Source of the DNA: Thermoanaerobaculia bacterium
Lineage (GTDB): Bacteria > Acidobacteriota > Thermoanaerobaculia > Multivoradales > Multivoraceae
NCBI GenBank assembly: GCA_963664405.1
Contig: OY761158.1
Span: 6,496,001 to 6,560,000, forward strand
Length of the DNA stretch: 64,000 nucleotides
Reading direction: 5' to 3'
In this document: piece after piece, positions 10,560 through 35,408 of the stretch
Position numbering within the stretch: position 1 is the stretch's first letter
Layout of the letters: each line of letters opens with the position of its first letter
Notes under the pieces: model-generated
Told to the model about the DNA's origin: nothing
What the model saw: the letters and a program-made list of their open reading frames with translations, nothing else
Database searches by the model: none
Position numbers and translations under genes: made by a program

Positions 10560-10616
10560 GGGCCGCCCTGGGGGGAGATTGCGACACGCTGTCGCGAAAT
10601 CTGTATAGAGGCGACA
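10560..10616 (+). repeat. orphan copy of the terminal-type TGTCG-N17-CGACA site
   Basis: GCGACA-3 bp-TGTCGCGAAATCTGTATAGAGGCGACA (10590-10616), same layout as 27182-27238. Confidence 0.6.
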
Positions 10617-13138: not shown

Positions 13139-13471
13139 GCCGCTCTCGAGGGGTACCTACGGCCTGCACCAGGCAGAGATCGGGCCTCTACGAGCCTCTC
13201 CGCGCGGCCGTCGCTCCGGAATCGGCTGCGGAATCTGACCGCCTGCGGAAAACGGCAGACCGTTTCCACGCAGGCCTTGGAAAACCGGCAGACCGGTTTC
13301 CCACAGCTACCGCACCCGCGACGACGACGATCTAGTACTGAAGCACTGAAGAAGGGAGAAAGACAGGAAATCCCGTACACTCAAACTTGCTGAGAGTGGC
13401 TCACTTTCAAAACGGTGAACGGCTCACTTTTCAAACGTTGCCACCAGACTACCCTTTTTAGCCACCCATCT

Positions 13472-14104
13472 ATGCCCTCATCATCCACCAAACGCGTCGC
13501 GATCTACGCCAGGGTCTCGACCATCGACAAGAACCAAGATCCGGAGACACAGCTTCGAGTGCTTCGAGATCTCGTACACCACCACGACGGCTGGAGTGTT
13601 GCCGACGAGTTTGTCGACCATGCCAGTGGTGGGACGACGGATCGCGAGCAGTACCAGGAACTTCTCGACAGCGTGCGCAAGCGCCAGGTCGACGTTGTTC
13701 TCGTCTACCGCTACAACCGCTTTGCTCGATCGACCCGGGAGCTCATCAACGCACTCGAGGAGTTTCGCGCCCTCGATGTCGACTTCATCTCCTACTCCGA
13801 GAACATCGACACCACGACACCCCAGGGAAGATTTTTCTTCACAGTGATCGCTGGTTTTGCGGAGCTCGAACGCGAGCAGATCTCAGAGAACGTGCGTGTC
13901 GGTATGGCCAGAGCACGAGCGCAAGGCAAACAGATTTCCCGACCTCGGATCCCGGAAGCCAAGCAGAAGCAGCTCCGCGATCTCGCTGCATCCGGCAAGT
14001 CGAAACGCTCGATCGCTCGGGAGCTCGGCATCAATCGCCAGACCGTGGCGAACTATCTAGCGGAAAAAGCCCAAGAATCACCTGCTCCAAAAGGGGGTCC
14101 CTAA
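13472..14104 (+). CDS. small serine recombinase (resolvase/invertase) with C-terminal HTH
   Basis: IYARVST catalytic Ser, RFARS, AELERE, C-terminal SIARELGINRQTV. Confidence 0.92.
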   Translation: MPSSSTKRVAIYARVSTIDKNQDPETQLRVLRDLVHHHDGWSVADEFVDHASGGTTDREQYQELLDSVRKRQVDVVLVYRYNRFARSTRELINALEEFRALDVDFISYSENIDTTTPQGRFFFTVIAGFAELEREQISENVRVGMARARAQGKQISRPRIPEAKQKQLRDLAASGKSKRSIARELGINRQTVANYLAEKAQESPAPKGGP

Positions 14105-14263
14105 ACCCTGCGGGGCCTGTAGCTACGGGCTCACGGGCTCTTTCGCTGCCAAGAGAAGGTGTCCCTAAAGGAGTGCCTTTTGAGCCCTCAGCGGCCCGCC
14201 ATCCACCACGACAGGGCGAGATCAACGCCTCTCCGCCCGCTTTTATTCAGATCGGGCTATACG

Positions 14264-14290
14264 TGTCGTAGTGCGCCAGATTTCGCGACA
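14264..14290 (+). repeat. 27-bp cassette-boundary site (CGCC-type box)
   Basis: GCTATACG-TGTCGTAGTGCGCCAGATTTCGCGACA. Confidence 0.8.
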
Positions 14291-14293
14291 CGC

Positions 14294-14338
14294 TCAACCA
14301 GTCGGCGCCAGCCGCTCAAGCTCCTCGAACCAGTGGAG
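14294..14338 (-). pseudogene. 3' remnant of a kinase/propeller gene
   Basis: Encodes LHWFEELERLAPTG*; compare QNWFEELERLVPTD* of 21548-24226. Confidence 0.75.
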
Positions 14339-14346
14339 GGCGGCGT

Positions 14347-15789
14347 TCACCGAACACCCAGCACCGCGCGACCGGGAGCCACACCCTCGACCAGCTGGCC
14401 GTCTCTGAGTACTGCAGTCCCTCCGACGAGCACGTGGATCATCCCCTGGGACGGAGTATCTCCTTTGGTGAACGTGGACCGGTCGAGGATGGTGTCGGGA
14501 TCGAAGATCGCGAGGTCCGCATCGGCGCCGACCTGCAATCGGCCCTTCTTCTTCATCGCCGGCGCAGCGCCTGCGAGCCGTTCGGCGGGCAGCAGAGTCA
14601 TTTTCGCGAGCGCATCCATCAAGCTCAGCGCGTTGCGTTCCCGCACGTAGTGTCCCAACACCCGCGAAAAGGTGCCCGCGCCTCGTGGGTGTGCGGGACC
14701 GTAAAGATAGGGAATCCCGTCGCTCGCGACCATCACGTCCGTCTGGGCGGTGATCCATTCGTTGGTCTCTTCGTTGCGTCCGTGAATGATGACCCAGCCC
14801 CCTTGTTGTCGATACTTGGTGAAAGTCGCGGTCGTGAGTCTTTCGCCAGTCGGGGGCCACTGAAGTTGCTGGTAGTCGTCGTCGGTCAAGTCCTGCCACG
14901 AATCGAACCACGCGGATTGGATCAACGTCGAGCCGGCGGTGTACGGATAGGCTTCCGTCGTGACGTCGAGCCCGCGCTCCTGCGCGCCTCGAATCATCCC
15001 CAACGTGACGCGCGCCAACTCGTCGGAGCTGCTGTTCATGTGAACGATGTGGGCGGAGACGCCGGTCGACGCGGCGTTCGAAAGGACTTCCTGAAACGCA
15101 CCGAGCGTGCCGCCGGAGTTCTCGCCGCGGACATGGATGTAGATCGGCACGCTACGGGAAGCGGCGAGATCGAACAGCTGCAGAATCTCCACCCGAGAAG
15201 CGCCGGGGGTGTACGTCAGGCCGAACCCGATTCCGAGAGCGCCTTCGTCCAGCCCCTGTTCGAGCATCGAGCTCAGCTCTGAAAGTTCGTCTTCGGTCGC
15301 GAGTTTGTAAGCGTGCTGGCCCTTGTTGAGCTCGGCCTGCTCGTCTGGCGGAAGCGTCGGAAGATGTTTCAACGCGACGCCGTCCATGAGCTTGGCTCGC
15401 GCAGGCCAGTGCCCGACCGTTGCCCCGTAGTGGATCAGAGCGCCTTCTCGTGACGTGAGCCACTCACCGACGGGGTAGACACCTACTTCCATCTCGAGCG
15501 CGGTCGTGACGCCGTCGGCGGCTTGCAAGCGGTTGCTCACCGGATCCTGTCCATGCGCGTGAAGGTCGATGAAGCCGGGTGCGACGACGAGTCCATCCGC
15601 CTCGATGGTCGCACGGCCTTCGAGCGGTGACTCGCTGATGGCCGTGATCCGACCGTCGGAAATCCCGACGTGCCGCACCGCGTCGAGGCCGGTCTCGGGA
15701 TCCATCACCGACCCGTTTTCGATGACGAGATCGAAATCTTGGGCCGGCGCCAGCGACGCGAACGCTAGTAGTATGAGAAATGGTTTCAT
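14347..15789 (-). CDS. secreted amidohydrolase (D-aminoacylase / D-glutamate deacylase-like)
   Basis: Signal peptide, PGFIDLHAH, ASDG, HPRGAGTF, KGRLQVGADADL. Confidence 0.88.
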   Translation of the reverse strand: MKPFLILLAFASLAPAQDFDLVIENGSVMDPETGLDAVRHVGISDGRITAISESPLEGRATIEADGLVVAPGFIDLHAHGQDPVSNRLQAADGVTTALEMEVGVYPVGEWLTSREGALIHYGATVGHWPARAKLMDGVALKHLPTLPPDEQAELNKGQHAYKLATEDELSELSSMLEQGLDEGALGIGFGLTYTPGASRVEILQLFDLAASRSVPIYIHVRGENSGGTLGAFQEVLSNAASTGVSAHIVHMNSSSDELARVTLGMIRGAQERGLDVTTEAYPYTAGSTLIQSAWFDSWQDLTDDDYQQLQWPPTGERLTTATFTKYRQQGGWVIIHGRNEETNEWITAQTDVMVASDGIPYLYGPAHPRGAGTFSRVLGHYVRERNALSLMDALAKMTLLPAERLAGAAPAMKKKGRLQVGADADLAIFDPDTILDRSTFTKGDTPSQGMIHVLVGGTAVLRDGQLVEGVAPGRAVLGVR

Positions 15790-15930
15790 GACGCGCACAC
15801 GATTATTCCATCAGGCCCCGTAGTACAGGATCTCGTAGTGACGCAGGCGCGTGCCTGCTTCTAGTGACATCGGTGGGCGGATCTTATCGGACGTGCGAAG
15901 CAGTCAGCGGATCAGAGAGGTGATCCCCCC

Positions 15931-16023
15931 TGTCGCAAAGCACCGAATTTCACGACAGCCCCTTCTCTCAGAGGGTCATCTGCTTTCGGCTATACCTGTC
16001 GCAGAGCGCCCAAAAGTGCGACA
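15931..16023 (+). repeat. paired cassette-boundary site (CACC box 15931-15957, CGCC box 15997-16023)
   Basis: Two TGTCG-N17-CGACA boxes 66 bp apart, with GCTATACC before box 2. Confidence 0.85.
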
Positions 16024-16027
16024 CGCG

Positions 16028-18702
16028 TCACTCGGTAGGTACGAGGCGTTCCAGCTCTTCGACCCAGCTCTCGACTATCACGACCCCTCCGTTCGACGAG
16101 TCCCCCCCCTGTCTAGCCATGACGAATCGTTGCCCATCAAGCGAGACGTCGTAGTTCGGGTTCCCGTTGGGATCTCTTGCATAGTTCCCCTCAAACAGGA
16201 TCTTCGGTCTCTGAGGCGAGAGTGGGCCAGAGGTCTGAACGCTCACCGACATCATGCGCAGGCCGTCGCGATAGAAGAGCTCGCGCCCGTCTCGGGACCA
16301 CAACGGCTCGCGTCCCCCTTCACTCGAGACCTTTACGGCGCCGCGGGGACCTGGGAAAGGAGCAACGAAGACCTCATCCGGCCCTTCTTCGTCGGAAACA
16401 TAGGCGAGCCAACGACCGTTTGGCGAGAGCACGGGCGCTCTTTCGTCATTCGGCGTAGACAGCCATGGCGACCTCTCACCTTCATGCAGTATCCAGATGT
16501 CACGCTGTGTGGACGGCGGGATCTCGTAGTAGACGAGGGTCTGCCCGTCTTGCGACCAGTTTCCTGGGGCTTGGATGATCTGGCCCTCAAGCAATTGGAG
16601 AGGCTCTGTGCTTCGGTCGGCGGCGACGACATGAAGATTGCGCCAGCCGCCGACTCCCCGTGTCTGAAACGTGATGCTCTCGCCGTCTGCAGTCCAAATG
16701 GGCCACGAGGCACCAAAATCGGTAAGGCGCGAGAAGATGTCTCGTTGCAGGTCGTAGAGCCAGATGTCCGGGGTGCCTCGAGTTACTCCGAGGGCGAGAC
16801 TCATCCCGTCTGGCGAAAGGCGGGGCCAGCTTGCAGCGCCGTCCGACGTCGCCAGGAGTTCTTCGTCTCCATCTCGATCGACCCAGACCAGGGTGTCGCT
16901 CACAATCTGGCCCAGCTCGTACGCGAGCGTTCCGTTCGAGGAGACCGAGATGCCGGCTCTCGTGTCGACGGCCCGCCTACCGTCCGTAGAGCGCAACGAG
17001 CGCAACGAGTGGATCACAGGGGCCGGTTCTCCAACGATCTGGACATTCTCTAGATCGAAGGGAGCTGCCCAAATGGCATCCCCACGAAGGAAGACAAGGT
17101 GCCCCGGTGGGACGAATCGCGGATCGGTTGCGTCCTCGATAAGGAGTCGCCGATTCTTCCCGGTGGCGACATCGGCGACCTCAACGTTGTAGTCCCCGTC
17201 GTCGCCCGTGACTAAGAGAAAGAATTCAGCACCCGCAAGAAGTTGCGGTCGCCAGGGAACGAAACCGCTGTCGAAGGTAAGTATATTCTCAGGCTCGCCT
17301 CCCGAGCCTGACACTTTGAGGATCCCCTCGCCGTCCATGCCGAAGACGATGAGGTCTCCCTCCCAACTCGCGCCTCTCACAATGTTGTGGACCTCGCACA
17401 GAGATACAGGAGTCCCTCCTGCAAGCGGGATCTTCCGCATGTGTGCCCCATCCAGGAAACCGACCCAAGCTCCATCTGGTGAGAAGAATGGCGAGGATGC
17501 GCCTTCAGTTCCCAGAATCGGAGAAGCCTCGAGGGTGTCGAGACGGCGTCGATAGAGACGGGCGACACCCTCTTCCTCGCCAGTGAAGACGAGAGTTCTG
17601 CCGTCCGGTGAGAGGGCGATCAAGGATGCAGAAGAGCCCGAGACCTGGCTCAAGGGAAGGTTCAGGAGGTAGCGAGAGGTGGGGAGCGGTTGGGAGAGAG
17701 GCCGCGGCCGATTCCAAACTACGATACCTGTTGCTGCGGACCCCAGTATCAAGGCGCAGATCGCCGTGGCAAAGGAACCGCGCGAGAAGGACCTTCGATC
17801 GGAGGGGTCGGGAACCACCGTCGTTGTCGCGTCCAAGCCCGAGAGAGACTCTTCGATCTCGATCCGGGCCATGGCGATGTCGGGAATGCGCTGCTGCTTT
17901 TTTTTCTCGAGAGAACGCCGTACCAGCCGCCGAATCGATGAAGGCAGTTCGACCGGCAGCGCCTCAAGGTCCGGCTGGTCCCGGAGCACTGCTGCCAGAG
18001 TGTTGGGCGCATCTTCACCTTGAAAGGCGCGCTGCCCGGTCAGTGCCTCGTAGAGGCAAGCACCGAAGGCCCAAACGTCGGTCCTCTTGTCCACCGCCTT
18101 TCCAGACGCCTGTTCCGGGCTCATGTAGGCTGCGGTGCCGAGGATCTGTCCGCGCTGCGTCGCCGCAAGGGTGAGAGTGGGTGAGTTGGAGAGGCCCGGA
18201 TCGACCATGTCAGCCTCTTTGACCATGGCCTTCGCCAGGCCGAAGTCGAGGATCTTGACGTTCGACTCATCCGTGCCGAGCTTGATGTTGGCAGGCTTCA
18301 GATCGCGGTGGATGATGCTCTTCTCATTCGCCGCCTCGAGCCCCTCTGCGATCTGCAGGAACAGCGGCAGCGCCTCATCGACAGGGATAGCTCCTCTCTT
18401 GATGCGGTCAGCCAACGTCTCGCCCTCGACCAACTCCATCACGAGGAAGTTGGTATCGCCTTCCCGTTCGAAGGCGTGGAGGCTGGCGATGTTCTTGTGG
18501 TTGAGCGAGGCCAGGACCCGCGCCTCGCGCTCGAATCGAGCTAGACGCTCCGGGTCAGAGGCGACCTCGTCGAGAAGTGCTTGATCGCCACCTCGCGGCC
18601 CAACTTGGTGTCGCGAGCTCGATACACCTCACCCATGCCCCCTGCACCGAGGGAAGAGACCACTTCGTAGTGGCCGAGGCGAGTGCCAGCTTCTAGAGCC
18701 AT
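16028..18702 (-). pseudogene. Ser/Thr kinase-TM-TolB/PD40 beta-propeller protein, frameshifted near codon 42
   Basis: GAGGMGEVY...VAIK in one frame and HRDLKPAN, DFG, SPE in another; 1-bp loss near 18578 relative to paralogs. Confidence 0.88.
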
Positions 18703-18763
18703 TGACTTGGCGACATCATACCCGTCGCCCGGGGGATTCAGCGGCTCAGAGCTCGATTTGCGA

Positions 18764-18855
18764 TGTCGCAAAGCACCCGGAACTACGACAGTTCGCCGAT
18801 TTCGGCGTTATCGAGATTCAGCTATACGTGTCGTCTCTCGCCAGATTTCACGACA
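18764..18855 (+). repeat. paired cassette-boundary site (boxes 18764-18790 and 18829-18855)
   Basis: TGTCGCAAAGCACCCGGAACTACGACA ... GCTATACG TGTCGTCTCTCGCCAGATTTCACGACA. Confidence 0.85.
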
Positions 18856-18997
18856 CTGACGATGTTGTCCATTGCACCTTCCACTACAAAAGGTGCCAAC
18901 TCGTTTGAGAACCGTGACTATCAGTCCGTTAAGGACGACGGCGATCGCGACGCCCGCAAGACTTGGGAGATCCGGGCGCGGAACCGGTGCTTCGGCT

Positions 18998-20377
18998 TCA
19001 GCTGCCGTACGTCGCGGCATCGAGCTCGAAAGCCAGGCCTCGCAATGACTCGATACAAGCCCGGCGCTTAGCGTTTTCTGCCGCTACTTGGCGGAAGAGC
19101 CGGAGAGAGGCTCGATCGTCGAGCGCGGACGTATCGCGGTCCAGATGTTCAGACAAAAGCTCGCAGCGCAGAGCTTTCACTGTGGGGCCGTGCCAGAAAC
19201 TGGCGTTGAGCTCGACGTCACCGTAGAACGAACGATTGGCGATGTTGGTCGAACCGATCGTTGCCCACACGTCGTCAATGAGAGCGATCTTGGCGTGCAC
19301 GTGGATGTCCTGGTAGCCGCGGTCGGGCCGGTTGGACGCGATACCCGCGAGGGTAAAACGGGGCGATGAGCCCAGGGTCGCGAGCGCCTCGAAGAACGGC
19401 CGCGACTTGGGATCCTGCCGGGTTCTCGACATGTCGGCCATCTTCACGGGCACCAGACAGACGACGTCGATCCCGCGATCACAGGCCACCTGCAGGCGTT
19501 CGATTACCTGCGGCGCTCCGATAGCCTGATCTTCGATGTAGATTGTGGAGCGTGCTGCGTCGATGGCGCTCAGGTACTGCTCGAGAGTGCTGTACTCGCC
19601 CGCACCGATCGCGAAACACTCGCCGCCGGGCGTTGCCGTGGAGTCACTGTAGTGACCCGCACGCACAGTGCGCTGAATCTGTACCGTCGCCTCGCCGACC
19701 TCGGAACTCAGCGCTTGGGGATGGGCCAGCTTGGCGTGACCTACTGCCGATGGCCAGACGCCGTCGTCGAGAGTTCTCTCGCTGGCTTCGTTCCACCGCT
19801 GCACGAAGTTGTGGTGAACATCCGTGGCCGATGGTCCGACGATCTCGACGTACACGTCATGGGTACTGCCGACCACCTCCCGGGGGCTGTGACCCGGCGA
19901 GACCACCGAGTTGGGGTGCAGATTGATGCCACCAACAAAGGCCACTTCGTGCTCTTTCCCGGCGTCGATCATCCAGCTCTTCTGGTGTTGGCAGTACCGT
20001 TTCTGGGCTCTGTCCCATACCGCCTGGAATCGCGAGCCACGCTCCGCCAGCCAGGCGCGCTGCTCCGAGGTGCCAGGGAAGTGCGACTCCGGGTGCGTTG
20101 TATCCGGATCGGAGCGCCAGAAGATGGCTCGTACGTCGAGGCCGCGGTCAACGGCCGCGTCCAGCACGTCGAAGAAAGTGCCGCGACCGTCTGGCATCTG
20201 CATGTTGCGTTTGATGAAGCTAACGGTCACCCAAACACTGTGACGCGCCGCCTCAGCGGCCTCACAGATACGGCGGAAGGCGGGCTCGCCGTCGACCATG
20301 GGATGTACGGCGTTACCGACGCGCGCCGGGTACGAGCCGGAGGTCGAGAAGGGAATGTGCTGGCCGTGGCGCTGCAT
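18998..20377 (-). CDS. phospholipase D / cardiolipin synthase-like protein; start approximate
   Basis: Two HKD motifs: HQKSWMID...GGIN and HAKIALID...GSTN. Confidence 0.88.
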   Translation of the reverse strand: MQRHGQHIPFSTSGSYPARVGNAVHPMVDGEPAFRRICEAAEAARHSVWVTVSFIKRNMQMPDGRGTFFDVLDAAVDRGLDVRAIFWRSDPDTTHPESHFPGTSEQRAWLAERGSRFQAVWDRAQKRYCQHQKSWMIDAGKEHEVAFVGGINLHPNSVVSPGHSPREVVGSTHDVYVEIVGPSATDVHHNFVQRWNEASERTLDDGVWPSAVGHAKLAHPQALSSEVGEATVQIQRTVRAGHYSDSTATPGGECFAIGAGEYSTLEQYLSAIDAARSTIYIEDQAIGAPQVIERLQVACDRGIDVVCLVPVKMADMSRTRQDPKSRPFFEALATLGSSPRFTLAGIASNRPDRGYQDIHVHAKIALIDDVWATIGSTNIANRSFYGDVELNASFWHGPTVKALRCELLSEHLDRDTSALDDRASLRLFRQVAAENAKRRACIESLRGLAFELDAATYGS

Positions 20378-20618
20378 GACGAGCGGCTTGACTACAAGCA
20401 ACTCTCACTATATTACGCTCTCTGACAGCCAGCCCTCGTTCGCGATAGGAGGCTTAGAAGCCGCTAGACCAGTGTCACCTTCCGCCTGAAAGTGTGCAGT
20501 GGCCAGCTCTCCCTATTGAGGCAGCGGCGCAACCGCCGAAGGTTGTCAACAGAAGGAAAGTGCAAGACATGCACCTTCCACAGCGAACTGTGCAAGCAGA
20601 CTTCTGGCTTGCGGGTGT

Positions 20619-20711
20619 CGTCGCGATGCACCCGGAACTGCGACACCGCACCGATTTCGGGGTCTATCGACTTTCAGCTATGCGTGTCGTGGTCCGCCCC
20701 AAACTACGACA
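20619..20711 (+). repeat. paired cassette-boundary site (boxes 20619-20645 and 20685-20711)
   Basis: CGTCGCGATGCACCCGGAACTGCGACA ... GCTATGCG TGTCGTGGTCCGCCCCAAACTACGACA. Confidence 0.85.
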
Positions 20712-20724
20712 GACCTGGGCGGAT

Positions 20725-21486
20725 TCAAATCCCGTTGGGGACGCCACTCCCTAGCGCGATGCGACCAGACGCTGCGCTGCGGTCTTCCCTCGAACCGGAG
20801 TCATCGGTGCGGGAGTACACGATGGCGTTGCCGTCTTTACCCACCATTTCGATGACCCCGACACGGCGCAGGCAGTAAGTCATCTGCTGCGCTAGACGGC
20901 GCCGCCGTCGGAGCGCCTCGGCGAGGTCGACAGTGGTGAACTCCCGCGGCACCTCGCTTGGCAGAAAGGAGGCCAAGGCCTCCGGTGAGTCGATGATGAG
21001 CCGATCGACGACCTCGAGCAGCCGACGCTCCTCGACCACCCAGCCCCTGCGTCGCCATCCTTTGTCGCCGTCGAAGCGGCGCACTTCTTCCTCGCGGATG
21101 AGCAGCACTTCGAGGGTCAAGTCGGCATGAGCGATGAGCCCCGGGAAGCTCACCAGCTCCCCGAAGAGGTCGACTGCAGCGCCTCGCTTGGGTGATTTCC
21201 GGCGGGAGGTCACTTCCCCCGACTCGTCGAGCTTCAGGATCCACTTCTCCACAGCGATCGGATGCACCACGCGTACGGCATGCCCATCGAGAAGCTTAGC
21301 CAGCTTGCGCTTCATCGATGAGAACCCGCGGGTCTGGATCTCGATGAGCAGACCGTTTCGGACGAGGTCGATCACGAACCCGTCGACGGGCTCTTCGACG
21401 CGATCATCGTCTTCGGCATACCAGCGTTTGAGTGCCGCATGCAGCGGCTTCTCGCCAAGCGTTCCCACATGCGTTCGAGCGGTCAT
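20725..21486 (-). CDS. conserved hypothetical protein, PD-(D/E)xK nuclease-like
   Basis: EKPLHAALK...FVIDL...IEIQT pattern, with a C-terminal wHTH-like segment. Confidence 0.65.
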   Translation of the reverse strand: MTARTHVGTLGEKPLHAALKRWYAEDDDRVEEPVDGFVIDLVRNGLLIEIQTRGFSSMKRKLAKLLDGHAVRVVHPIAVEKWILKLDESGEVTSRRKSPKRGAAVDLFGELVSFPGLIAHADLTLEVLLIREEEVRRFDGDKGWRRRGWVVEERRLLEVVDRLIIDSPEALASFLPSEVPREFTTVDLAEALRRRRRLAQQMTYCLRRVGVIEMVGKDGNAIVYSRTDDSGSREDRSAASGRIALGSGVPNGI

Positions 21487-21517
21487 CTGCGGCGACGCTA
21501 TCAAGGCGCCGCTCGGC

Positions 21518-21544
21518 TGTCGTCTTCCGCCGAAAAAGACGACA
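21518..21544 (+). repeat. single CGCC-type cassette-boundary site
   Basis: TGTCGTCTTCCGCCGAAAAAGACGACA, 3 bp from the kinase stop codon. Confidence 0.8.
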
Positions 21545-21547
21545 CGA

Positions 21548-24226
21548 TCAGTCGGTAGGGACCAACCGCTCCAGCTCCTCGAACCAGTTCTGGACCAGGA
21601 CGACGTGATTGGGTGCTCCCCCCTCGGTCGTCTCCACCGGTTTGACCATCAGGAACTTCTGAGCGTCAGGGGCGACGTCGTACATGCGGCCGATGGTGAC
21701 GGAATAGCTCCCGGTGAAGAGCACCTCCGGGCTTCCAGCCTCGAACGCGGGCTCGGTCCTCACTGGTACTGCCATCAGGCTGTCTCCGGATCGATAGAAG
21801 AGTTCGCTGCCGTCCGGTGACCACAACGGTTCGGTGCCGCCTCTCGCCGAGATCGGGATACGACCGCTGTCAACGTCAGGGAACGGCCTCACGTAGATCC
21901 GGTCCTCGCCCGATTCGTCCGACTGGTAGGTCAACCACCGACCATCGGGTGAGATCTCTCCATTCCGCTCACCGAACTCCGAGGCCAGAAGCGGTTCTGG
22001 CGGTTCCTCGCCTTCCAGCGACAGCACCCCCAGATCGCTCGCCGTCGTGCCGACGCGATAGATGAGAAGCTTGCCGTCGGGGGAGATCGACGATGGAAAT
22101 AGATTCTCTGCGGTCTCCGTGAGCTGCATCACCTCGCCCGTACCATCAGCCGCCCTCTGGTAGACGTCGAAGGTCCCGCCACGAACCGAGCTGTACACCA
22201 CTTCGCGGCTGTCAGGAGTCCAGATCGAATGCATGTCCATTCCCGGATCGCGGGTCAACCGGTCCAGGGTCTCCCGACCGAGATCCCAGATCCACACATC
22301 CTGTTCTTCATCAAGAGAAGAGACTGCTACCCGCCGTCCGTCCGGAGAAATGCGCGGATGGGCATAGGACCGAAATGGGGCCAAGAGGGCCTCCTCCCCT
22401 CCATCCCGTCCCACCCAGACCAGGGCCGTCTGCACCCCTCCCCCTGCGCCACCCGTGACGTACACCAAGGATCCGTCCTGCGAGAAGTCGAAGTTCACAG
22501 CACCTGTGGGCATCGTGCCGACGCCTTTCAAGACGGGCACCGGATTTCCCCGGACCTCAAGACTTCCTGCATCGAAGGCCACCGCACGTAACGTGCCGCT
22601 CACCCCATAGACCAGGTGCCCAGTGGGCACGTACCGGGCGCCGGCCCCTTCAGAGAACAGGACCTTCCGCTCCCCGGTAGTGAGAGATTGGGCCACGATC
22701 TGCGTTTGCTCGACGTTCGCGCTCGTGAAGACCGTGAAAAGGACGGCCTCGCCGCCAGGCAGCATCTCGGGAAAACGATAGGCAGTCTCACCCCTCTCGC
22801 GATCTGGCGCTACCAGCAGCTCCAGCTCGCCGCCTCCCCCCGACACCCGATAGAGACCCCCGGTTGCGGAGCCGAAGACAATGGTGTCGTCCGCCCCCCA
22901 GTTTGCACCGGTGAGAAGGTCGGGTAGCTCGCACAACGTCACGGTTGGTCCGCCGAGAATGGAGACCTTCTTGAGAGTCCCGCCGGATCGGAAGCCGACC
23001 CAGGCCCCGTCGGGCGACAGGAAGGGAGCAGTCGCGCCCTCCGTACCTGCGAGCTGGGACCCGACGAGGCGATCCACTCGGCGAACATAGAGAGAGCCTT
23101 CGCTGAGGTAGACGACCACCCGACCGTCGGGTGTCATCGCCAGATCGCGACCGGGGAAGGTACCCCCCACCGGCACACTGGGAGCGGCGCTCAGCACCGA
23201 GCGAACCACAGGGCGCTCGGGTGGCGCGGGTGCGGGCTTCAGGGTCCACACGGTGATCCCCGCGATTACCGCACCGGCAGCCAGCATAGCGAGGCCCGAA
23301 GGTACGGGGCTGCGCTTCTCCGCCACGACCGCGCCGGGCGTGGGCTCACGGTCCTGCGGAGCCACGATGGCTTCTTCGATCTCGATGCGGGCGTCACCGA
23401 TATCGCGCAGCCGCTGTCTTGGGTCCTTGCTGAGACACCGCCGCAACAGTTCTCGGAGCTTTCGGGGCGTAGCGTCGGGGAGCCGTTCCCAATATGGGTC
23501 GGACTTGAGCACCGACGCCAGGGTGATGGAGGCGTCCTCGCCCTCGAAGACTCGCTTGCCGCTCAGCGCCTCGAACAGACAGACCCCGAAAGCCCATACA
23601 TCGGCGCGCTTATCGACGGTCTTTCCTCGCGCCTGCTCGGGAGCCATGTAGGCGGCAGTGCCGAGAATCTGGCCGCGTTGGGTCGCGGCGAGTGTGAGCG
23701 TCGGAGACTCAGACAAGCCGCCGTCTCCGCTCCCACTAGCTTCCACAGCCATCGCCTTGGCCAGACCGAAATCGAGGATCTTGACCGCACCGTCTTCCGA
23801 CACTTTGATGTTCGCAGGCTTCAAATCCCGGTGGATGACCCCTTTCTCGTGGGCTGCCTCCAGGCCCTCCGCGATTTGCAAGAAAACGGGTAATGCCTCA
23901 TCGACAGGGATTGCACCTCTCTTGATGCGATCAGCCAGGGTCTCGCCTTCCACCAGCTCCATGACCAGGAAGCTGGTGTCGCCTTCCCGCTCGAAGGCAT
24001 GGAGGCTGGCGATGTTCTTGTGGTTGAGCGACGCCAGCACCCGCGCCTCACGCTCGAAGCGCGCCAGCCGCTCGGCGTTCTGCGATACCTCCTCAAGGAG
24101 CAGCTTGATCGCCACTTCCCGCCCGAGCTTGGTGTCGCGGGCTCGGTAGACCTCTCCCATGCCCCCCGCGCCTAGCGAGGAGACCACTTCGTAGTGGCTA
24201 AGGCGAGTGCCAGCTTCTAGAGCCAT
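21548..24226 (-). CDS. Ser/Thr kinase-TM-TolB/PD40 beta-propeller protein
   Basis: Complete Hanks motifs, one TM helix, repeated SPDG blades. Confidence 0.93.
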   Translation of the reverse strand: MALEAGTRLSHYEVVSSLGAGGMGEVYRARDTKLGREVAIKLLLEEVSQNAERLARFEREARVLASLNHKNIASLHAFEREGDTSFLVMELVEGETLADRIKRGAIPVDEALPVFLQIAEGLEAAHEKGVIHRDLKPANIKVSEDGAVKILDFGLAKAMAVEASGSGDGGLSESPTLTLAATQRGQILGTAAYMAPEQARGKTVDKRADVWAFGVCLFEALSGKRVFEGEDASITLASVLKSDPYWERLPDATPRKLRELLRRCLSKDPRQRLRDIGDARIEIEEAIVAPQDREPTPGAVVAEKRSPVPSGLAMLAAGAVIAGITVWTLKPAPAPPERPVVRSVLSAAPSVPVGGTFPGRDLAMTPDGRVVVYLSEGSLYVRRVDRLVGSQLAGTEGATAPFLSPDGAWVGFRSGGTLKKVSILGGPTVTLCELPDLLTGANWGADDTIVFGSATGGLYRVSGGGGELELLVAPDRERGETAYRFPEMLPGGEAVLFTVFTSANVEQTQIVAQSLTTGERKVLFSEGAGARYVPTGHLVYGVSGTLRAVAFDAGSLEVRGNPVPVLKGVGTMPTGAVNFDFSQDGSLVYVTGGAGGGVQTALVWVGRDGGEEALLAPFRSYAHPRISPDGRRVAVSSLDEEQDVWIWDLGRETLDRLTRDPGMDMHSIWTPDSREVVYSSVRGGTFDVYQRAADGTGEVMQLTETAENLFPSSISPDGKLLIYRVGTTASDLGVLSLEGEEPPEPLLASEFGERNGEISPDGRWLTYQSDESGEDRIYVRPFPDVDSGRIPISARGGTEPLWSPDGSELFYRSGDSLMAVPVRTEPAFEAGSPEVLFTGSYSVTIGRMYDVAPDAQKFLMVKPVETTEGGAPNHVVLVQNWFEELERLVPTD

Positions 24227-24285
24227 GACTTGGCGACATCTTACCGGTCGCCCGTGGTATCAGCGGCTCGGAGCTCGATCTGTGC

Positions 24286-24378
24286 TGTCGCAGAGCACCG
24301 AATTTCACGACAACACCTCTGCTCGAAGGCTTATCTGCTTCCGGCTATGCGTGTCGCAGACCGCCACAATTCGCGACA
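24286..24378 (+). repeat. paired cassette-boundary site (boxes 24286-24312 and 24352-24378)
   Basis: TGTCGCAGAGCACCGAATTTCACGACA ... GCTATGCG TGTCGCAGACCGCCACAATTCGCGACA. Confidence 0.85.
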
Positions 24379-24388
24379 CGCCTTCGCC

Positions 24389-27058
24389 TCACGAGCCCCC
24401 CTCGGAGAACATCTCGAGCACCTTGGCCCGCCAGTTCTGGACCAAGACTAGACGCTCCTCCTCGTCCTCTTCTACCGCCTGGATCATGAGGAAGCGACCG
24501 TCGGGGTGGACGGCGTAGTTCTGGTAGCGTCCGGGCACGCGCAGGTAATCATCCTCGAAGAGTGGCTCGGGACGCCGGGTGACGAAGCGCTCGCCGTCGA
24601 TCTCGATCGGGAGCGTCATCATGTGGGTCGGGCTGCGGTAGAGGATCTCGCTGCCTTCGGGGGAGAAGCTCGCCTCCTGGCCGCCGTCGAAGGTGAGCTG
24701 GCGCGGCTCGCCGGGACCGGGGAAGGGCCGAATCCAGACGTTCTCCTCGCTCTGAACGACCACCGAGTAAGCGATCCAACGTCCGGTGGGGTGGAAGCGG
24801 GCGGCGCGGACCCGGTTCCCCTCGAGGAGGGTCTCGGACTCCCCGCTCTCCCGGTCGAAGACCCAGAGTCCGGGGAAATCGAAGTTCGTGTAGAGCATGT
24901 AGCGCCCGTTCGGGGAGAAGTCGAGAACGGACTGGGCGTGCTCCGACGGCACGAGACGCTCCGCCGGGGCACTGCGATCGGCGGGCTGGATGTAGAGCTG
25001 ATAGCGCCCCTCGAAGCGATCCGACATGAAGACGATCTCCTGGCCGTCGGGCGGCACCCACCTCGCGCCAAGGTTGCGATTCCCCTCCTGGGTCGGGCGG
25101 GTCCAGGAGCCGGTCTCGAGGTCGAGCATCCACTGCTCGTAGTTCCCCTTGGCGTCGCGGGCGCTGACCGAGATCCGGAGCCAGTCCAGGGAGTGTCGCG
25201 GCGACAGGAAAGGCTTGCGCTCCGGCGCCACCTCCTCGATGTCCAGGCCGTCCCGACTCACCCAAACCAGCCGGGACACGCTCCGACTCCCGAGAACGTA
25301 GAGCAGGTCGCCCGAATCTGCGAGCGCGAAGCGGCCGACATCGACGTTAGAGCGGAGGCGCGGGGCCACCCCGGTCTCGACCTGACGCGCTGGGCCGAGG
25401 AGGTCGGCGGTCTCGGGATCGATCGGCGCCGCCCACAGTCCACCCCCGCGATAGAAGACCAAAACCCCCGGATCGAGATAGAGCGGCTGCGCCCCAGGGA
25501 GGAGAACCCGTTCCTGGCCAGTCTCGAGGTCCACCGCCCGCACCTCGCTCCAGAAGCCGTCCTGACGCTCGGATCTCAAGTGGGCCAGGGCGATCCGTTC
25601 ACCAGGCAGAAGCGCTCCCCCGTAGCCATGCCCCACCTGCTCGGGGACGCCCCCACCCGCCGGAATCCGCCATAGCTCGCGAGACGTGCCGCTGCCTGTC
25701 TCAGGCGTGTAGTAGAGGAAGCCATCGCGCCCCCAGACACCGGCGCTGCGGATCCCGTCCACCAGAACGCTGGCGCCTCCACCCTCCACGGGAAGCGTCT
25801 TCAGACTGCCCCCCGCGTCCCTGAAGGCAAGCTGCTGGCCGTCGGGCGAGAAGGTCATGGAGCGGGTGGCACCGTCGCTACCGGAGATGCGCTCGGCGAC
25901 CAGGGAGTCGAGAGAGCGTCGGTAGAGGCTGGTCTCGGCTCCCTCGCGACGACTGAAGACCACTAGCCGACCGTCCGGAGAGAGCACGACGGGCTGATCC
26001 GGAGCTGCCTCGAGATCGAGAGCCGTGACCGTCCAGGTGTCATCCGAGGCAGCGTCGCTCGCCGCATCGCCTCCATCTCGGAACAGGCCGAAGCCCAAGA
26101 CAAGACCGATCACCACAGCGAGGGCGAGGGCGAGGACAACCGACACTCGCCGCCGGGCTGGTGCCGCCTCGCCACCGGCTGGCGCGTCGATGTCCGGCTG
26201 CTCGAGCACTCCTCGGATCTCGATCCGAACGTCGGCGATGTCGTGAAGGCGCTCCCGCGGGTCCTTCGTCAAACACCGTCGGAGCAGTCTCCTGATCGCT
26301 CTCGGCGTCGCCGGGGGGAGCTTGCCCCAGTCGATCTCCGCTCTGAGCACCGCTGCCAGCGTGTCGGCGGCATCGTCGCCGTGGAACGCCCTCGATCCCG
26401 TCAGCGCCTCGTAGAGACACACGCCGAAGGCCCAGACGTCGGCCCTTCTATCGACCTCTTTCCCCTTGGCTTGTTCGGGCGACATGTAGGCCGCCGTGCC
26501 GAGGATCTGGCCCCGGAGCGTGGCCGCCTGGGTCAGCGTGGGCGACTCCGAAGGGTCGCTCTCCGGGCCCGTTGCCGGAGCCATTGCCTTGGCCAGACCG
26601 AAGTCAAGAATCTTGACGTTGCCGTCGTCGGTGACCTTGATGTTCGCGGGTTTGAGATCCCGGTGGATCACTCCCTTCTCGTGCGCTGCCTCAAGCCCCT
26701 CGGCGATTTGGAGAAACAGAGGGATCGCCTCCTCGACGGGAATCGGGCCGTGAGCGATCCGATCGGCCAGAGTCTCGCCCTCGACCAGCTCCATGACCAG
26801 GAAGCCCGTGTCACCTTCCCGCTCGAAGGCGTGGAGGCTGGCGATGTTCTTGTGGTTGAGCGAGGCGAGAACTCGCGCCTCGCGCTCGAAGCGAGCTAGA
26901 CGCTCAGGATCTGTGGAGACCTCATCAAGCAGCAGTTTGACCGCTACCTCGCGACCGAGCTTCGTGTCCTTGGCTCGATACACTTCTCCCATGCCTCCTG
27001 CACCTAGCGAGGAGACCACTTCGTAGTGGCCGAGGCGAGTGCCAGCTTCTAGAGCCAT
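24389..27058 (-). CDS. Ser/Thr kinase-TM-TolB/PD40 beta-propeller protein
   Basis: Complete Hanks motifs, one TM helix, divergent propeller. Confidence 0.93.
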   Translation of the reverse strand: MALEAGTRLGHYEVVSSLGAGGMGEVYRAKDTKLGREVAVKLLLDEVSTDPERLARFEREARVLASLNHKNIASLHAFEREGDTGFLVMELVEGETLADRIAHGPIPVEEAIPLFLQIAEGLEAAHEKGVIHRDLKPANIKVTDDGNVKILDFGLAKAMAPATGPESDPSESPTLTQAATLRGQILGTAAYMSPEQAKGKEVDRRADVWAFGVCLYEALTGSRAFHGDDAADTLAAVLRAEIDWGKLPPATPRAIRRLLRRCLTKDPRERLHDIADVRIEIRGVLEQPDIDAPAGGEAAPARRRVSVVLALALAVVIGLVLGFGLFRDGGDAASDAASDDTWTVTALDLEAAPDQPVVLSPDGRLVVFSRREGAETSLYRRSLDSLVAERISGSDGATRSMTFSPDGQQLAFRDAGGSLKTLPVEGGGASVLVDGIRSAGVWGRDGFLYYTPETGSGTSRELWRIPAGGGVPEQVGHGYGGALLPGERIALAHLRSERQDGFWSEVRAVDLETGQERVLLPGAQPLYLDPGVLVFYRGGGLWAAPIDPETADLLGPARQVETGVAPRLRSNVDVGRFALADSGDLLYVLGSRSVSRLVWVSRDGLDIEEVAPERKPFLSPRHSLDWLRISVSARDAKGNYEQWMLDLETGSWTRPTQEGNRNLGARWVPPDGQEIVFMSDRFEGRYQLYIQPADRSAPAERLVPSEHAQSVLDFSPNGRYMLYTNFDFPGLWVFDRESGESETLLEGNRVRAARFHPTGRWIAYSVVVQSEENVWIRPFPGPGEPRQLTFDGGQEASFSPEGSEILYRSPTHMMTLPIEIDGERFVTRRPEPLFEDDYLRVPGRYQNYAVHPDGRFLMIQAVEEDEEERLVLVQNWRAKVLEMFSEGGS

Positions 27059-27118
27059 TGACTTGGCGACATCATACCCGTCGCCCGGGGGATCAGCGGC
27101 TCAGAGCTCGATTTGCGA

Positions 27119-27238
27119 TGTCGCACCTCACCCCGAAAGACGACACGCAGGCCCGCAAGTCCCCGTATTTGCTGGATTCTCTTGGTGCCCCAAGGGCGAA
27201 AGGCGACAGTTTGTCGCGATATGTGCGTGGGTGCGACA
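27119..27238 (+). repeat. terminal three-part site of the array
   Basis: CACC box 27119-27145; degenerate box ending in CGACA at 27208; full box 27212-27238. Confidence 0.75.
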
Positions 27239-27643
27239 CCTTACCTCTGAGCACGGTCGTCGTTTCGACATCTGCGGAAGCCCGCCCCAGGATGGCACCG
27301 ATCTGAAGCCGTTCGCTGATCCCCTACCCGACGAGCTACTCACCTCCTGCTCACCAGCTTCTAGAAGAGGGGAGGCGGCTGCCTCCCATTACAGACAAGA
27401 TCGCTGTCACGCCTACGCGCCGTGAAGGCTAGCCGCCCTCGTTATACAGGGTGCGCGGTGGTGGCGTTTGATGCAGCGCTCGCGCAAAACGGCGGCAGAG
27501 GAACTCCGGACAGGGGTAAGGTGGGGGGTCCCCCGCCGAGGCTCCCTGCCGCTCGGGGGGCCCGTGGAGGGAGGGTCCAGGCCCCTAAAAGACTGCGCTG
27601 GTCATCATACTCCTTCACCAGTGGTCTTGACCCGGCTGGGATG

Positions 27644-28006
27644 CTAGTCCGGATCCCGGATCGCACTCGAGAGCATGAAACGGACCTTGCCCCCGGCCTG
27701 TCGGTAATACGGTGCGATGGTGGCCCGGCGACCATCTTCGAGCTCCAGCTCCACTACCCGCGCCTTCACGGCGATGTCGAAAGCGGCGCCCTCATCGTCG
27801 AGGTCCAGGGTGCCTCGGCCCTCCATGCGCTGACGGGTTTCTATGGGGCCGCCGTCGCCGCCCGTCAGCGTTCGGACAAGCTGGACCTTCAGGTGATAGT
27901 GCGCGTCAACCGACCTGTCGTCGTAGTGGATGCGACCATAACCGTTGAGGTCTTCGAGCGTCTCGTTGCGGACCTGTCCTTTGCCGCGACGGCTGCGACG
28001 TGCCAT
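27644..28006 (-). CDS. hypothetical protein, paralog of 28714-29043
   Basis: Shares G.GR..Y...SV.AHY.LKV, EGRG.L, VELE.EDGRR and VRF.LSSA with the paralog. Confidence 0.7.
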   Translation of the reverse strand: MARRSRRGKGQVRNETLEDLNGYGRIHYDDRSVDAHYHLKVQLVRTLTGGDGGPIETRQRMEGRGTLDLDDEGAAFDIAVKARVVELELEDGRRATIAPYYRQAGGKVRFMLSSAIRDPD

Positions 28007-28022
28007 GAGGACTTCTGATCCT

Positions 28023-28048
28023 ACCTCAGCGCAGATCTGCGCTGAGGT
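28023..28048. promoter_or_regulatory. 26-bp perfect palindrome, putative operator
   Basis: ACCTCAGCGCAGATCTGCGCTGAGGT; related cores at 28661-28676 and 29060-29075. Confidence 0.5.
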
Positions 28049-28184
28049 TCGCGAAGCTGGCAACCAGAAACGCCCGAGAACGCCCGTTCTCTGCCGCGGG
28101 AGGGTAGTGTGCACACCCTGCCGCGCCAGCGGCCTTTCTGGGCGCGACCGGGGCGCAAGTAGAGGCTCTCGGGTGGCTCTCGGG

Positions 28185-35356: not shown

Positions 35357-35408
35357 CTTGGGTTCTCCGCATTGTGCACTTGCCCTTCTTCACAAATCTT
35401 CCGGGCTC

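Follow-up and report, generated by a model that had tools for sequence, protein, structure and literature searches.

The region analysed here is probably an integron-like system of gene cassettes built on a new and simple 27-bp site (hereafter the box), at which a DNA-binding recombinase, perhaps encoded away from the arrays, would exchange strands. One-way arrays jointed by boxes, together with swaps that fall exactly at the boxes, give the region an integron-style appearance, although it has neither the enzyme nor the site of an integron.

The box motif and the arrays

Within the window, the 64-kb stretch of DNA analysed in the present study, the motif TGTCG-N5-CRCC-N8-CGACA had ten exact matches where none was expected, all on the plus strand (starting at 14264, 15931, 15997, 18764, 18829, 20685, 21518, 24286, 24352 and 27119), and none of 100 shuffled sequences contained a match. 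An eleventh box, at 20619, begins CGTCG and carries one mismatch, and the 11 boxes listed in the original prediction thus comprise ten exact copies and one imperfect copy. All 11 have C(A/G)CC at positions 11–14, as had been claimed. The four CACC plus CGCC pairs 65–66 bp apart (15931/15997, 18764/18829, 20619/20685 and 24286/24352) were confirmed as well, and all four linkers contain GCTAT(A/G)C(G/C) and a short, hairpin-like inverted repeat.

A scan of the whole genome found 88 exact copies, compared with none in the reversed genome, and 81 of the 88 sit in eight co-oriented arrays; the motif is clustered genome-wide and does not stand singly ahead of regulon genes. All boxes within an array have one orientation, and the genes lie on the strand opposite to the CRCC reading. 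In gene orientation the 27-bp box reads TGTCG-N8-GGYG-N5-CGACA, with two types, G (GGCG) and A (GGTG), in addition to a head (T) type. Pairing beyond the fixed 5-bp ends was at chance level across the 88 copies, with no covariation, the Watson–Crick pairs observed being equal to those expected at pairs 6/22 to 9/19. By direct reading, the G box and the A box of one pair are not complementary, and box positions 9–10, inside the left end, are A/T only. Judged by sequence, then, the boxes are not hairpins.

The window array holds six intervening genes with a box at every joint, and the ORFs confirmed that all six are on the minus strand, as predicted. Its features are as follows, the gene calls being those of a crude GC3-based caller:

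27239–27370, minus strand: leader of ~130 nt, lying upstream of the T box and also conserved at two further array heads
27212–27238, minus strand: head (T) box, with TGTCG/CGACA ends and without GGYG (a third box type, without CRCC); marks the array head
27119–27145, minus strand: A-type box (GGTG), 60 nt ahead of the first kinase ATG
24389–27058, minus strand: cassette gene, Ser/Thr kinase with PD40 repeats, 889 aa (Pfam Pkinase E 4e-52, PD40)
24352–24378, minus strand: G-type box (GGCG), 10 nt past the stop of the 889-aa kinase
24313–24351, minus strand: G-to-A linker, 39 nt, a conserved ORF-less mini-unit with an ATAGC motif and a short inverted repeat
24286–24312, minus strand: A-type box, 59 nt ahead of the ATG of the 892-aa kinase
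21548–24226, minus strand: cassette gene, Ser/Thr kinase with PD40 repeats, 892 aa (Pfam Pkinase E 2e-53)
21518–21544, minus strand: single G-type box, 3 nt past the kinase stop and 13 nt ahead of the next gene start
20725–21504, minus strand: cassette gene, 259 aa, no Pfam family, no paralog in the genome
20685–20711, minus strand: G-type box, 13 nt past the stop of the 259-aa gene
20619–20645, minus strand: A-type box, one mismatch at its downstream end (gene orientation)
18998–20401, minus strand: cassette gene, PLD-like protein, 467 aa (Pfam PLDc_2 E 4.6e-19), no paralog
18829–18855, minus strand: G-type box
18764–18790, minus strand: A-type box
16028–18771, minus strand: cassette gene, Ser/Thr kinase with PD40 repeats, broken into ORFs 16028–18442 and 18541–18771
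15997–16023, minus strand: G-type box, 4 nt past the kinase stop
15931–15957, minus strand: A-type box, followed by a kinase 5'-end remnant (~15800–15870) and no kinase gene
14347–15798, minus strand: cassette gene, amidohydrolase, 483 aa (Pfam Amidohydro_3 E 1.3e-19)
14264–14290, minus strand: tail G-type box with ATAGC motif, no co-oriented gene after it
13415–14104, plus strand: small serine recombinase (resolvase), 229 aa (Pfam Resolvase E 3.9e-43)
10590–10616, minus strand: head box, T-like but degenerate, next to the remnant of an IS91-like end, with an IS21 insertion between box and resolvase

The leader is 92.8% identical with that of array A3 over 180 bp, and its match to array A5 begins at the same point. 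The first A box (27119) comes 93 bp downstream of the T box. Read in gene orientation, the T box gives way after 3 nt to a further TGTCGC half-site. The corresponding head motif, TGTCGC-N16-CGACA-N3-TGTCGC, occurs eight times in the genome, always at array heads, is absent from the reversed genome and was found in two metagenome contigs (L015 and L076) too. Each array has one head of this conserved T-box/A-box architecture, and neither a conserved protein gene at the heads nor a sigma-70 consensus at the head leaders was found.

Stops 3–13 bp from a box had been claimed for most of the genes, and this holds for four of the six (16028, 20725, 21548 and 24389), but the PLD-like gene stops 142 nt and the amidohydrolase ORF 56 nt from the box. 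In the latter case a conserved C-terminal tail (...HWFEELERLAPTG) lies in another frame, its end 3 nt short of the tail box. The 889-aa kinase has 87–89% identical paralogs in other arrays, and in the longer ORF of the broken kinase the Pfam Pkinase match starts at profile position 76. The label 'nuclease-like' for the 259-aa protein is not supported, because the protein belongs to no Pfam family and gave only weak matches to PDB sequences (best E 0.006, a ribosomal protein). Cassette content is mixed, with kinases, the amidohydrolase, a PLD-like protein, alpha/beta hydrolases, PNPOx, MBL, TPR and DUF proteins and proteins of no family; many of the cassettes in this genome are large (2.7–3.7 kb) paralogous kinases.

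Exchange junctions within the genome and between populations

The contexts of 102 boxes were compared pairwise, with flanks classed at ≥80% against <45% identity. In 89 pairs the left flanks were below 45% identical and the right flanks at least 80%, and similarity set in at box position 14 (22 pairs), 21–23 (28 pairs) or 0–1 (15 pairs). For 19 reverse pairs, in which the left flank was similar, similarity ended at position 17 (four pairs) or 27–28 (eight pairs). The pairs in these counts are not independent, since many involve 5' regions of paralogous kinases that homologous recombination could also exchange. Homology breaks at all three invariant blocks and not at one position; the breaks pile up at the invariant GGYG (positions 14–17, gene orientation), with a smaller cluster past the five variable bases that follow it. 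The 10-7-10 register put forward earlier did not emerge from these breaks; a register centred on the five variable bases fits at least as well.

The sharpest case is a 3,827-bp unit present in arrays A1 and A3 with 99.7% identity. Its left edge falls at positions 11–13 of a G box, and in the next G box its right edge falls between positions 17 and 18; the DNA outside the two edges is unrelated. Further segments of high identity start at box positions 11–14 and end at 15–17. These edges bear on the idea that no site-specific process is at work, and that tandem kinase duplicates were homogenised by homologous recombination or gene conversion with the boxes as mere conserved parts of the unit. 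The arrays do hold ~28 kinase paralogs whose mosaic similarity often begins or ends inside genes, and the kinase 5' region common to many of the right-similar pairs fits such a process. However, the 99.7% unit ends in a box past which homology is lacking, an edge that homologous recombination could not have produced, and boxes also flank the unrelated, single-copy PLD-like, 259-aa and amidohydrolase genes and many small metagenome cassettes, the metagenome arrays being mostly non-kinase. We regard homogenisation by itself as very unlikely.

The variable parts of the box were then considered across 224 boxes, a match being ≤1 mismatch. Unrelated pairs matched in 3% of cases at positions 6–13 and in 13% at positions 18–22. 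Pairs with only upstream DNA in common matched in 31% and 23% respectively, and those with only downstream DNA in common in 4% and 51%. The left variable part tends to go with the upstream DNA and the right part with the downstream DNA, the association being partial.

Re-assortment extends beyond this genome. Scanning metagenomes for a G box plus ATAGC yielded 93 contigs, and the 80 analysed contained 141 boxes and 61 inter-box segments, of which 27 are linkers of 38–40 nt and 34 measure 92–3,182 bp. In these 80 contigs the boxes delimit single-ORF cassettes of 0.3–3.2 kb. One gene per unit, as predicted, is the prevailing layout: of 32 segments longer than 150 bp with one ORF covering more than half, 26 are co-oriented with the boxes and six opposite. 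The 16 pairs of contigs that are ≥90% identical gave 20 points, contig ends excluded, at which homology stops, and ~17 of these are within -12 to +47 nt of a box. The same cassette with differing neighbours was found, for example, in three sets of contigs (L036/L043/L037/L088, L060/L069 and L082/L087), although metagenome contigs may be chimeric at repeats. For the window array, contigs from four runs (two studies) keep the gene order at every joint spanned, and no circle, excision scar or strain-level rearrangement of this array was seen. The proposed variation in cassette order is thus seen among contigs with a common cassette, but not in the window array. Cassette shuffling, likewise, agrees with exchange at boxes within the genome and between populations, whereas no excision or integration event was seen. 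Taken together, the comparisons of sequence show that the boxes are boundaries of past exchange of DNA segments, within the genome and between related populations.

Enzyme searches and other roles for the boxes

No recombinase gene consistently linked to the arrays or their heads was found, inside or outside the window. The resolvase gene in the window lies 159 nt from the tail box, and a 93% identical copy adjoins a solitary array-type kinase at 2.755 Mb of the genome; two of four small resolvase genes are near box-family DNA. The integron integrase profile TIGR02249 gave 29 partial matches in the whole genome and none above the cut-off (best 122 bits compared with 265, away from the arrays). 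These matches split around profile positions 181–235, and none is a dedicated head-adjacent gene. No attC-like structure was found at the boxes. The probable dif, at genome position ~6,765,435 (cumulative GC-skew maximum 6,764,000), is an ordinary ATAA-N6-TTAT site, with ATAA/TTAT as inner repeats and the usual two arms about a 6-bp centre, and the box has none of its features. With chance-level pairing beyond the 5-bp ends, no integrase above the cut-off and no likeness to the probable dif, the sites are neither attC nor dif, as originally stated.

IS110-family elements were found at fixed positions inside boxes, with a 370-aa type placed after box position 17 and a second type, of 415 aa, after position 3. 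Likewise, IS1111-attC and REP-targeting IS110-family (DEDD) elements occupy one fixed position inside a conserved repeated site, and insertion at fixed positions is known for REP sequences too. The elements in the boxes are passengers that target the box and account for neither the arrays nor the cassette junctions. Their fixed positions, the G boxes at a median of 23 nt past stop codons, the two box types with a conserved 39-nt linker and the Y1-transposase-like genes of the genome would all suit REP/BIME-like intergenic repeats, i.e. two types and a linker placed after stops in operons, with a role in mRNA or the nucleoid, whose part in rearrangement and IS insertion would be only that of passive hot spots. 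Typical REP/BIME units are dispersed palindromes that form hairpins, often stand in inverted pairs and flank a RAYT gene. On the other hand, pairing shows no covariation beyond the 5-bp ends, the copies are confined to eight accessory-gene arrays rather than dispersed, all are direct and gene-parallel with no inverted pairs, none of the 13 Y1_Tnp matches in the genome is in or beside an array, and the boxes bound single-ORF units that re-assort. We therefore consider this explanation very improbable.

The placement of the boxes relative to genes could also suggest a regulatory site before each gene of a regulon, either an ECF-sigma-type promoter, whose -35 and -10 elements would be TGTCG and CGAC, or an operator bound by a dimeric regulator, with the genes having spread by duplication. 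A boxes precede kinase start codons by a fixed ~60 nt, co-oriented genes lie downstream of most boxes of either type (41 of 55 G and 29 of 33 A), and most other genomes carrying the box have only 1–4 copies. The Sinorhizobium promoters listed in PMC6180224 for RpoE10 (TGTCG-N18-CGTC) and RpoE9 (TGTCACA-N16-CGTC) come close to the TGTCG-N17-CGAC of the box. ECF41/ECF42-type promoters similarly have TGTC(G/A) and CG(T/A)C blocks ~17–18 nt apart, but the box differs from them in its invariant GGYG, which would fall within a promoter spacer, in its CGACA end, in its presence at gene-less array tails and in being a homology breakpoint. Promoter duplication does not predict homology that stops sharply within the box and gives way to unrelated DNA on one flank. 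Moreover, 26 of the 88 boxes, the tail box at 14264 among them, have no co-oriented gene within 500 nt downstream, the box at 21518 ends only 13 nt ahead of a start codon, and none of 26 sigma-70 region-4 matches lies in the arrays, whereas in an ECF regulon every regulated gene has the motif and the cognate sigma gene usually carries it or is next to it. A purely regulatory site is accordingly unlikely in our judgement, although regulatory and recombination roles are not mutually exclusive and could coexist.

Comparison with known systems and a proposed mechanism

To our knowledge, integrons are the textbook, and almost the sole, general mechanism for capturing and re-ordering single genes at a dedicated site. 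The present arrays resemble them, sedentary chromosomal integrons and integrase-less attC clusters included, in being one-way series of co-oriented, mostly single ORFs with a site close behind each, in having ORF-less units and a distinctive head, one per array, in cassettes that recur among different neighbours with the junction falling within the site, in IS110-family insertion into the site, and in a mixed cassette content of often obscure function. Integron cassettes are mostly promoterless, and an integron has attI and a common promoter at its head and, beside the array, a gene for an IntI-type tyrosine recombinase with an extra domain specific to IntI. Unlike integrons, the present arrays have no adjoining IntI-type integrase, two site types (GGCG and GGTG) plus a head type, and, in this genome, many large paralogous kinase cassettes. 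Whereas attC sites are imperfect palindromes of 57–141 bp that fold and have conserved outer core motifs, the box is a simple 27 bp with fixed 5-bp ends, no evidence of folding and no attC core motifs.

In the pdif/Xer modules of Acinetobacter plasmids, simple sites of ~28 bp border the gene modules. Their recombinase gene lies elsewhere in the genome, and a linked enzyme is therefore not to be expected. The boxes are similarly short and simple and flank gene modules, but they do not resemble the probable dif of the host and are all direct repeats, whereas pdif sites alternate in orientation. Small serine resolvases bind sites of ~25–34 bp whose half-sites begin TGTC. The inverted TGTC ends of the box, ~27 bp apart, its A/T-only positions 9–10 and the resolvase gene adjoining the tail recall such sites; however, only half of the resolvase genes are near box-family DNA, and the breaks are not limited to a central dinucleotide. 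A CRISPR array was rejected, the segments between boxes being conserved 38–40-nt linkers or genes of 0.1–3.7 kb and not unique spacers of ~25–50 bp.

In the integron-like reading, the genome would have some eight arrays of mobile cassettes, one of them in the window, each running, in gene orientation, from a leader T box through 66 nt to an A box and then to co-oriented, mostly single-ORF units, with the 39-nt G-to-A linker as an ORF-less mini-unit ahead of most kinase cassettes. A DNA-binding recombinase would pair two boxes and exchange their strands, for the most part at the invariant GGYG or immediately past it. Positions 6–13 would in this way stay with the upstream unit, and positions 18–22 would mostly go with the downstream one. 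Were a segment excised between two direct boxes, a circle with one box would result, and re-insertion of the circle at another box would move the unit. We infer that the exchange is enzymatic and site-specific and that circles form. As for the enzyme, a tyrosine recombinase that tolerates heterology in an overlap of ~5 nt (positions 18–22) and is encoded away from the arrays is only a guess.

More tentatively, the boxes may belong to a hitherto undescribed platform for capturing genes, one that parallels integrons yet is independent of them, with a simple 27-bp double-stranded site (T, G and A variants) and an unlinked recombinase, perhaps of a new or unexpected family. Such a platform might assemble and shuffle single-gene cassettes and spread them across environmental bacteria labelled Acidobacteriota and might have driven the expansion to ~28 sensor-kinase paralogs seen here. 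A practical yield could be a compact 27-bp recombination site with its matching enzyme, and the cassette pool can be catalogued now, since one pattern scan was enough to find the 93 metagenome contigs. If this is a second system with a different and much simpler site, the strategy of capturing single genes would have evolved more than once. If true, it would also provide a concrete mechanism for the turnover of accessory genes and the expansion of paralogs in a poorly studied but environmentally abundant phylum.

Boxes and genes of the arrays

The 27-bp pattern of the original prediction, TGTCG-N5-CRCC-N8-CGACA, was matched exactly ten times in the window, in every case on the plus strand (14264-27145), with matches in 0 of 100 shuffled sequences; the eleventh box, at 20619, differs from the pattern by a single base. 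Four boundaries are paired, and their linkers contain the GCTAT(A/G)C(G/C) motif and short inverted repeats, all as claimed; the six genes between the boxes all lie on the minus strand. Read in the orientation of the genes, the box is TGTCG-N8-GGYG-N5-CGACA, with a GGCG form (G box) and a GGTG form (A box). G boxes lie close behind stop codons, four of the six window genes stopping 3-13 nt from one, and A boxes lie 65-66 bp beyond the G boxes, approximately 60 nt ahead of the kinase start codons. A third form, the T box, is found at the head of the array.

27212: T box, TGTCG/CGACA ends without GGYG, 93 bp upstream of the first A box

Five of the six genes were assigned by Pfam, three of them as Ser/Thr kinases carrying PD40 repeats, one as an amidohydrolase and one as a PLD-like protein. 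The remaining 259-aa gene had no Pfam family and only weak sequence matches in the PDB, so its 'nuclease-like' label is unsupported. Genes beyond the standard ORF lists were called with a crude caller.

Signs of decay or patching were seen at three places inside cassettes of the window array. Upstream of the amidohydrolase (15800-15870) there is a truncated kinase N-terminus that runs for about 19 codons before a stop, the amidohydrolase ORF and a conserved tail (...HWFEELERLAPTG; 14294-14346) are in different frames, and the kinase at 16028-18771 is split in two within 18442-18541. Two C-terminal tails recur before G boxes throughout the genome (...NWFEELKRLVPTD and ...QNWRAKVLEMFSEGGS, for example at window 21548 and 16028), so the conserved unit of a joint may reach about 45 nt into the coding sequence that precedes it; the tail ...NWFEELKRLVPTD is common to the kinases and, out of frame, the amidohydrolase.

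Across the whole genome (6.78 Mb in a single contig, with the window at C1:6496001-6560000) we found 88 exact boxes, compared with none in a reversed control. The clustering that had been anticipated was evident, as 81 of the 88 copies are grouped in eight arrays (those named here carry the prefix A), in each of which the orientation is uniform and parallel to the genes. Each array has one head, consisting of a T box, 3 nt, a further TGTCGC half-site and then an A box; this motif has eight copies in the genome and none in the control, and a comparison of all heads revealed no protein-coding gene common to them. The array genes comprise about 28 kinase paralogs together with single-copy genes, such as the PLD-like and 259-aa genes of the window. 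An origin of the arrays by pure duplication of paralogs fails on the non-kinase cassettes.

Two further repeats were observed. A gene pair in the window, 43066-43848 (260 aa) and 42699-42902 (67 aa), occurs about 27 times in the genome in identical or near-identical form, including once within array A5, and is presumably an insertion sequence. An inverted repeat, GGAAGGTGC...GCACCTTCC, recurs near the resolvase copies described below and some array heads, and the PLD cassette also has it in its 5' region (window ~20555-20579).

Window 10640-10680: inverted repeat GGAAGGTGC...GCACCTTCC
Genome 2755800-2755960: the same repeat
Genome 2758900-2759040: the same repeat

The box as a junction of exchanged DNA

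We scored the two variable parts of 224 boxes with full flanks, a match being defined as two boxes within one mismatch. The match rates followed the direction expected if exchange falls between the variable parts, with coupling that was only partial.

Table. Match rates of the two variable parts of the box
Unrelated pairs: left part (6-13) 3%, right part (18-22) 13%
Pairs sharing upstream DNA only: left part (6-13) 31%, right part (18-22) 23%
Pairs sharing downstream DNA only: left part (6-13) 4%, right part (18-22) 51%

Junctions were mapped by pairwise comparison of 102 box contexts, the pairs of which are not independent. In 89 pairs a near-identical downstream flank was combined with an unrelated upstream flank, and similarity began at box position 14 (22 pairs), at 21-23 (28 pairs) or at 0-1 (15 pairs). 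The reverse case was represented by 19 pairs, with similarity ending at position 17 in four and at 27-28 in eight. Since box positions 1-5, 14-17 and 23-27 are invariant, the breaks lie at three invariant blocks, mostly centrally. In the clearest case a 3,827-bp unit is shared by arrays A1 and A3 at 99.7% identity; it starts within a G box, at positions 11-13, and stops between positions 17 and 18 of the next G box, and the DNA outside is unrelated. An edge at which homology ends cannot be the product of homologous recombination, and the edges of this unit thus point to a process acting on the box itself. As judged from these alignments, the box is supported as a junction of exchanged DNA.

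The box could instead be a regulatory site, either an ECF-type promoter or an operator, and such a role may well hold alongside recombination. It has some support, as an ECF-type promoter described in PMC6180224 has blocks and spacing similar to those of the box, but it explains neither the junctions nor the boxes that have no gene downstream. Counts of sigma-70 promoters and intrinsic terminators in 14000-27600 were at chance level, with no promoter-like site at a box; a single terminator-like site (21569-21544) ends at the box at 21518.

A repeated unit of ~0.4 kb was also noted, which starts with a degenerate right half-box containing CGAGT in place of CGACA. In L062, a locus outside this genome, and at genome 2.682 Mb it is fused to the leftmost 17 bases of a G box.

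L062:~1685 onward: ~0.4-kb repeated unit
Genome 2682024: ~0.4-kb repeated unit
Genome 3046577: ~0.4-kb repeated unit

Two types of IS110-family element were found, each inserted at a fixed position of the box. In each of its two genome copies the 370-aa type starts right after GGCG (position 17), reading GGCG followed by CAAACATC..., and at the far end of the copy in A6 the right half-box, a normal linker and an A box resume; a protein 97.6% identical to it is encoded on metagenome contig L078. On three contigs the 415-aa type lies after the TGT (position 3) of an A box. The contexts are two and independent: in one the element follows a T-box leader, and in the other, which is seen on two overlapping contigs, it follows a G-linker.

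Genome 779128-780240 (A3): IS110-family element, 370 aa
Genome 4985829-4986941 (A6): IS110-family element, 370 aa; also in L078 and L036
L015:114-1546: IS110-family element, 415 aa (Pfam DEDD_Tnp_IS110, Transposase_20); also in L074 and L078, near G boxes

IS110-family elements are known to target integron attC or REP sequences, and the fixed-position insertion in boxes resembles theirs. These insertions show that the box is a conserved and repeatedly available target, and are silent on its function. Such targeting, together with the position behind stop codons, would suit a REP/BIME-like repeat, an assignment that fails on structure, distribution and orientation.

Structure of the box and candidate recombinases

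A hairpin or attC-like fold of the box was rejected, as pairing beyond the fixed 5-bp ends was at chance in the 88 copies: Watson-Crick pairs at 6/22, 7/21, 8/20 and 9/19 numbered 40, 28, 19 and 40, against 44, 30, 19 and 38 expected. No Rfam family matched window 13000-28500 at E<=1, and no integron integrase in the genome scored above the curated cut-off. An origin of the boxes as target-site duplications was likewise discarded, because positions 18-22 differ in all consecutive boxes of the window array.

Approximate matching to a dif consensus gave no match, and an inner-repeat search gave one intergenic candidate of the ATAA-N6-TTAT type at genome ~6,765,435. This site is placed at the maximum of the cumulative GC skew (6,764,000; minimum at 2,750,000) and is probably the chromosomal dif, which would put the window ~205-270 kb from the probable terminus. 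It is ordinary in form and wholly unlike the box. The claim that the sites are neither attC nor dif was upheld. A full-text literature search revealed, in titles and abstract openings, no published account of the box or of such arrays.

No gene is conserved at the array heads, and no recombinase could be linked to the arrays. A resolvase beside the tail of the window array has a 93% identical copy adjoining a solitary array-type kinase at genome 2.755 Mb, and these two are the only small resolvases near box-family DNA, the others lying elsewhere. An IS21-family element (window 10831-13446; istA-like 10941-12389, istB 12386-13138) separates the window resolvase from a degenerate T-like box (10590), and the 2.755-Mb copy is free of this insertion. 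A 2.6-kb element, which by eye we take to be IS91-like, encodes a tyrosine recombinase of 286 aa together with a protein of 408 aa. Four of its five copies are at most 75 nt from a box, and its ends are its own and fixed. In another genome (L015), a partial copy with 99.5% identity adjoins a G box. The flanks suggest that the element prefers an AAGG|CTTA-like target, which the linker happens to contain.

Genome 34950-37055: 2.6-kb element
Genome 41711-43816: 2.6-kb element
Genome 597007-599112: 2.6-kb element
Genome 615271-617376: 2.6-kb element
Genome 887326-889431: 2.6-kb element
L015:8230-8817: partial copy

A 179-aa tyrosine recombinase, consisting of the catalytic domain only, is carried as a cassette of array A7, at its tail; a 214-aa tyrosine recombinase near a single box is not among the three best paralogs of the 179-aa protein. 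Y1-transposase-like genes are present in the genome, none of them near an array. When 13 recombinases of the genome were compared with the external loci using tblastn, IS110-like proteins, one IS91-like protein and one large serine recombinase gave matches, and no other recombinase did.

Box arrays in other genomes and a proposed mechanism

In 40 genomes from the family or order of this bacterium, the pattern was matched at background level only (0-5 per genome, mostly in coding-looking sequence) with the exception of one relative, G008, with four box-like copies; scanned viral contigs gave no match. In species-representative genomes, a G box followed by ATAGC was found in several MAGs labelled Acidobacteriota and one labelled Myxococcota, at low copy number (1-4 per genome), and the G-linker-A and T-head architecture was likewise found there.

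A metagenome scan yielded 93 contigs, of which the 80 listed were analysed, assembly chimeras being possible among them. They contain 141 boxes and 61 inter-box segments, namely 27 linkers of 38-40 nt and 34 segments of 92-3,182 bp. As a rule, each of the longer ones contains a single ORF covering 80-95% of its length; an ORF occupied more than half of the segment in 32, and was co-oriented with the boxes in 26 of these. These ORFs represent unrelated families or have no family, and the same cassette has differing neighbours on different contigs. In contig pairs of at least 90% identity, ~17 of 20 homology ends (contig ends excluded) fell at a box. Reads and contigs from four runs of two studies were compared with window 12500-28500. 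Identical contigs cover, among other stretches, 13979-15856, 15981-18136 and 18857-21601, and are interrupted at the repeats; the joints listed from this comparison had sides of at most 38 nt and lay in kinase paralogs, none of them at a box and none a circle junction, an outcome that does not count against exchange at boxes.

We propose that a protein would recognize the TGTCG, GGYG and CGACA blocks, pair two boxes and exchange strands near GGYG. Breaks of a second and smaller class fall on the right-hand side of positions 18-22, and these five bases partly assort independently. Both features would fit staggered cuts flanking positions 18-22 with the mismatches between them tolerated, a behaviour of some tyrosine recombinases. 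We also infer that the G box and the following NNNATAGC may form an imperfect inverted repeat centred on 18-22, with TGGCG as the left arm, CGACA as the right arm and A/T-rich stretches outside. As the breaks and the assortment fit cuts on either side of these bases, the original 10-7-10 division of the box into two arms and a 7-bp centre is not established.

On its main point the cassette-array interpretation was supported, with junctions identified in silico in one closed genome and many independent contigs. The box arrays stand apart from Xer modules and, having no IntI and no attC, from integrons, yet they work like an integron, and the junctions support the view that they are cassette arrays.
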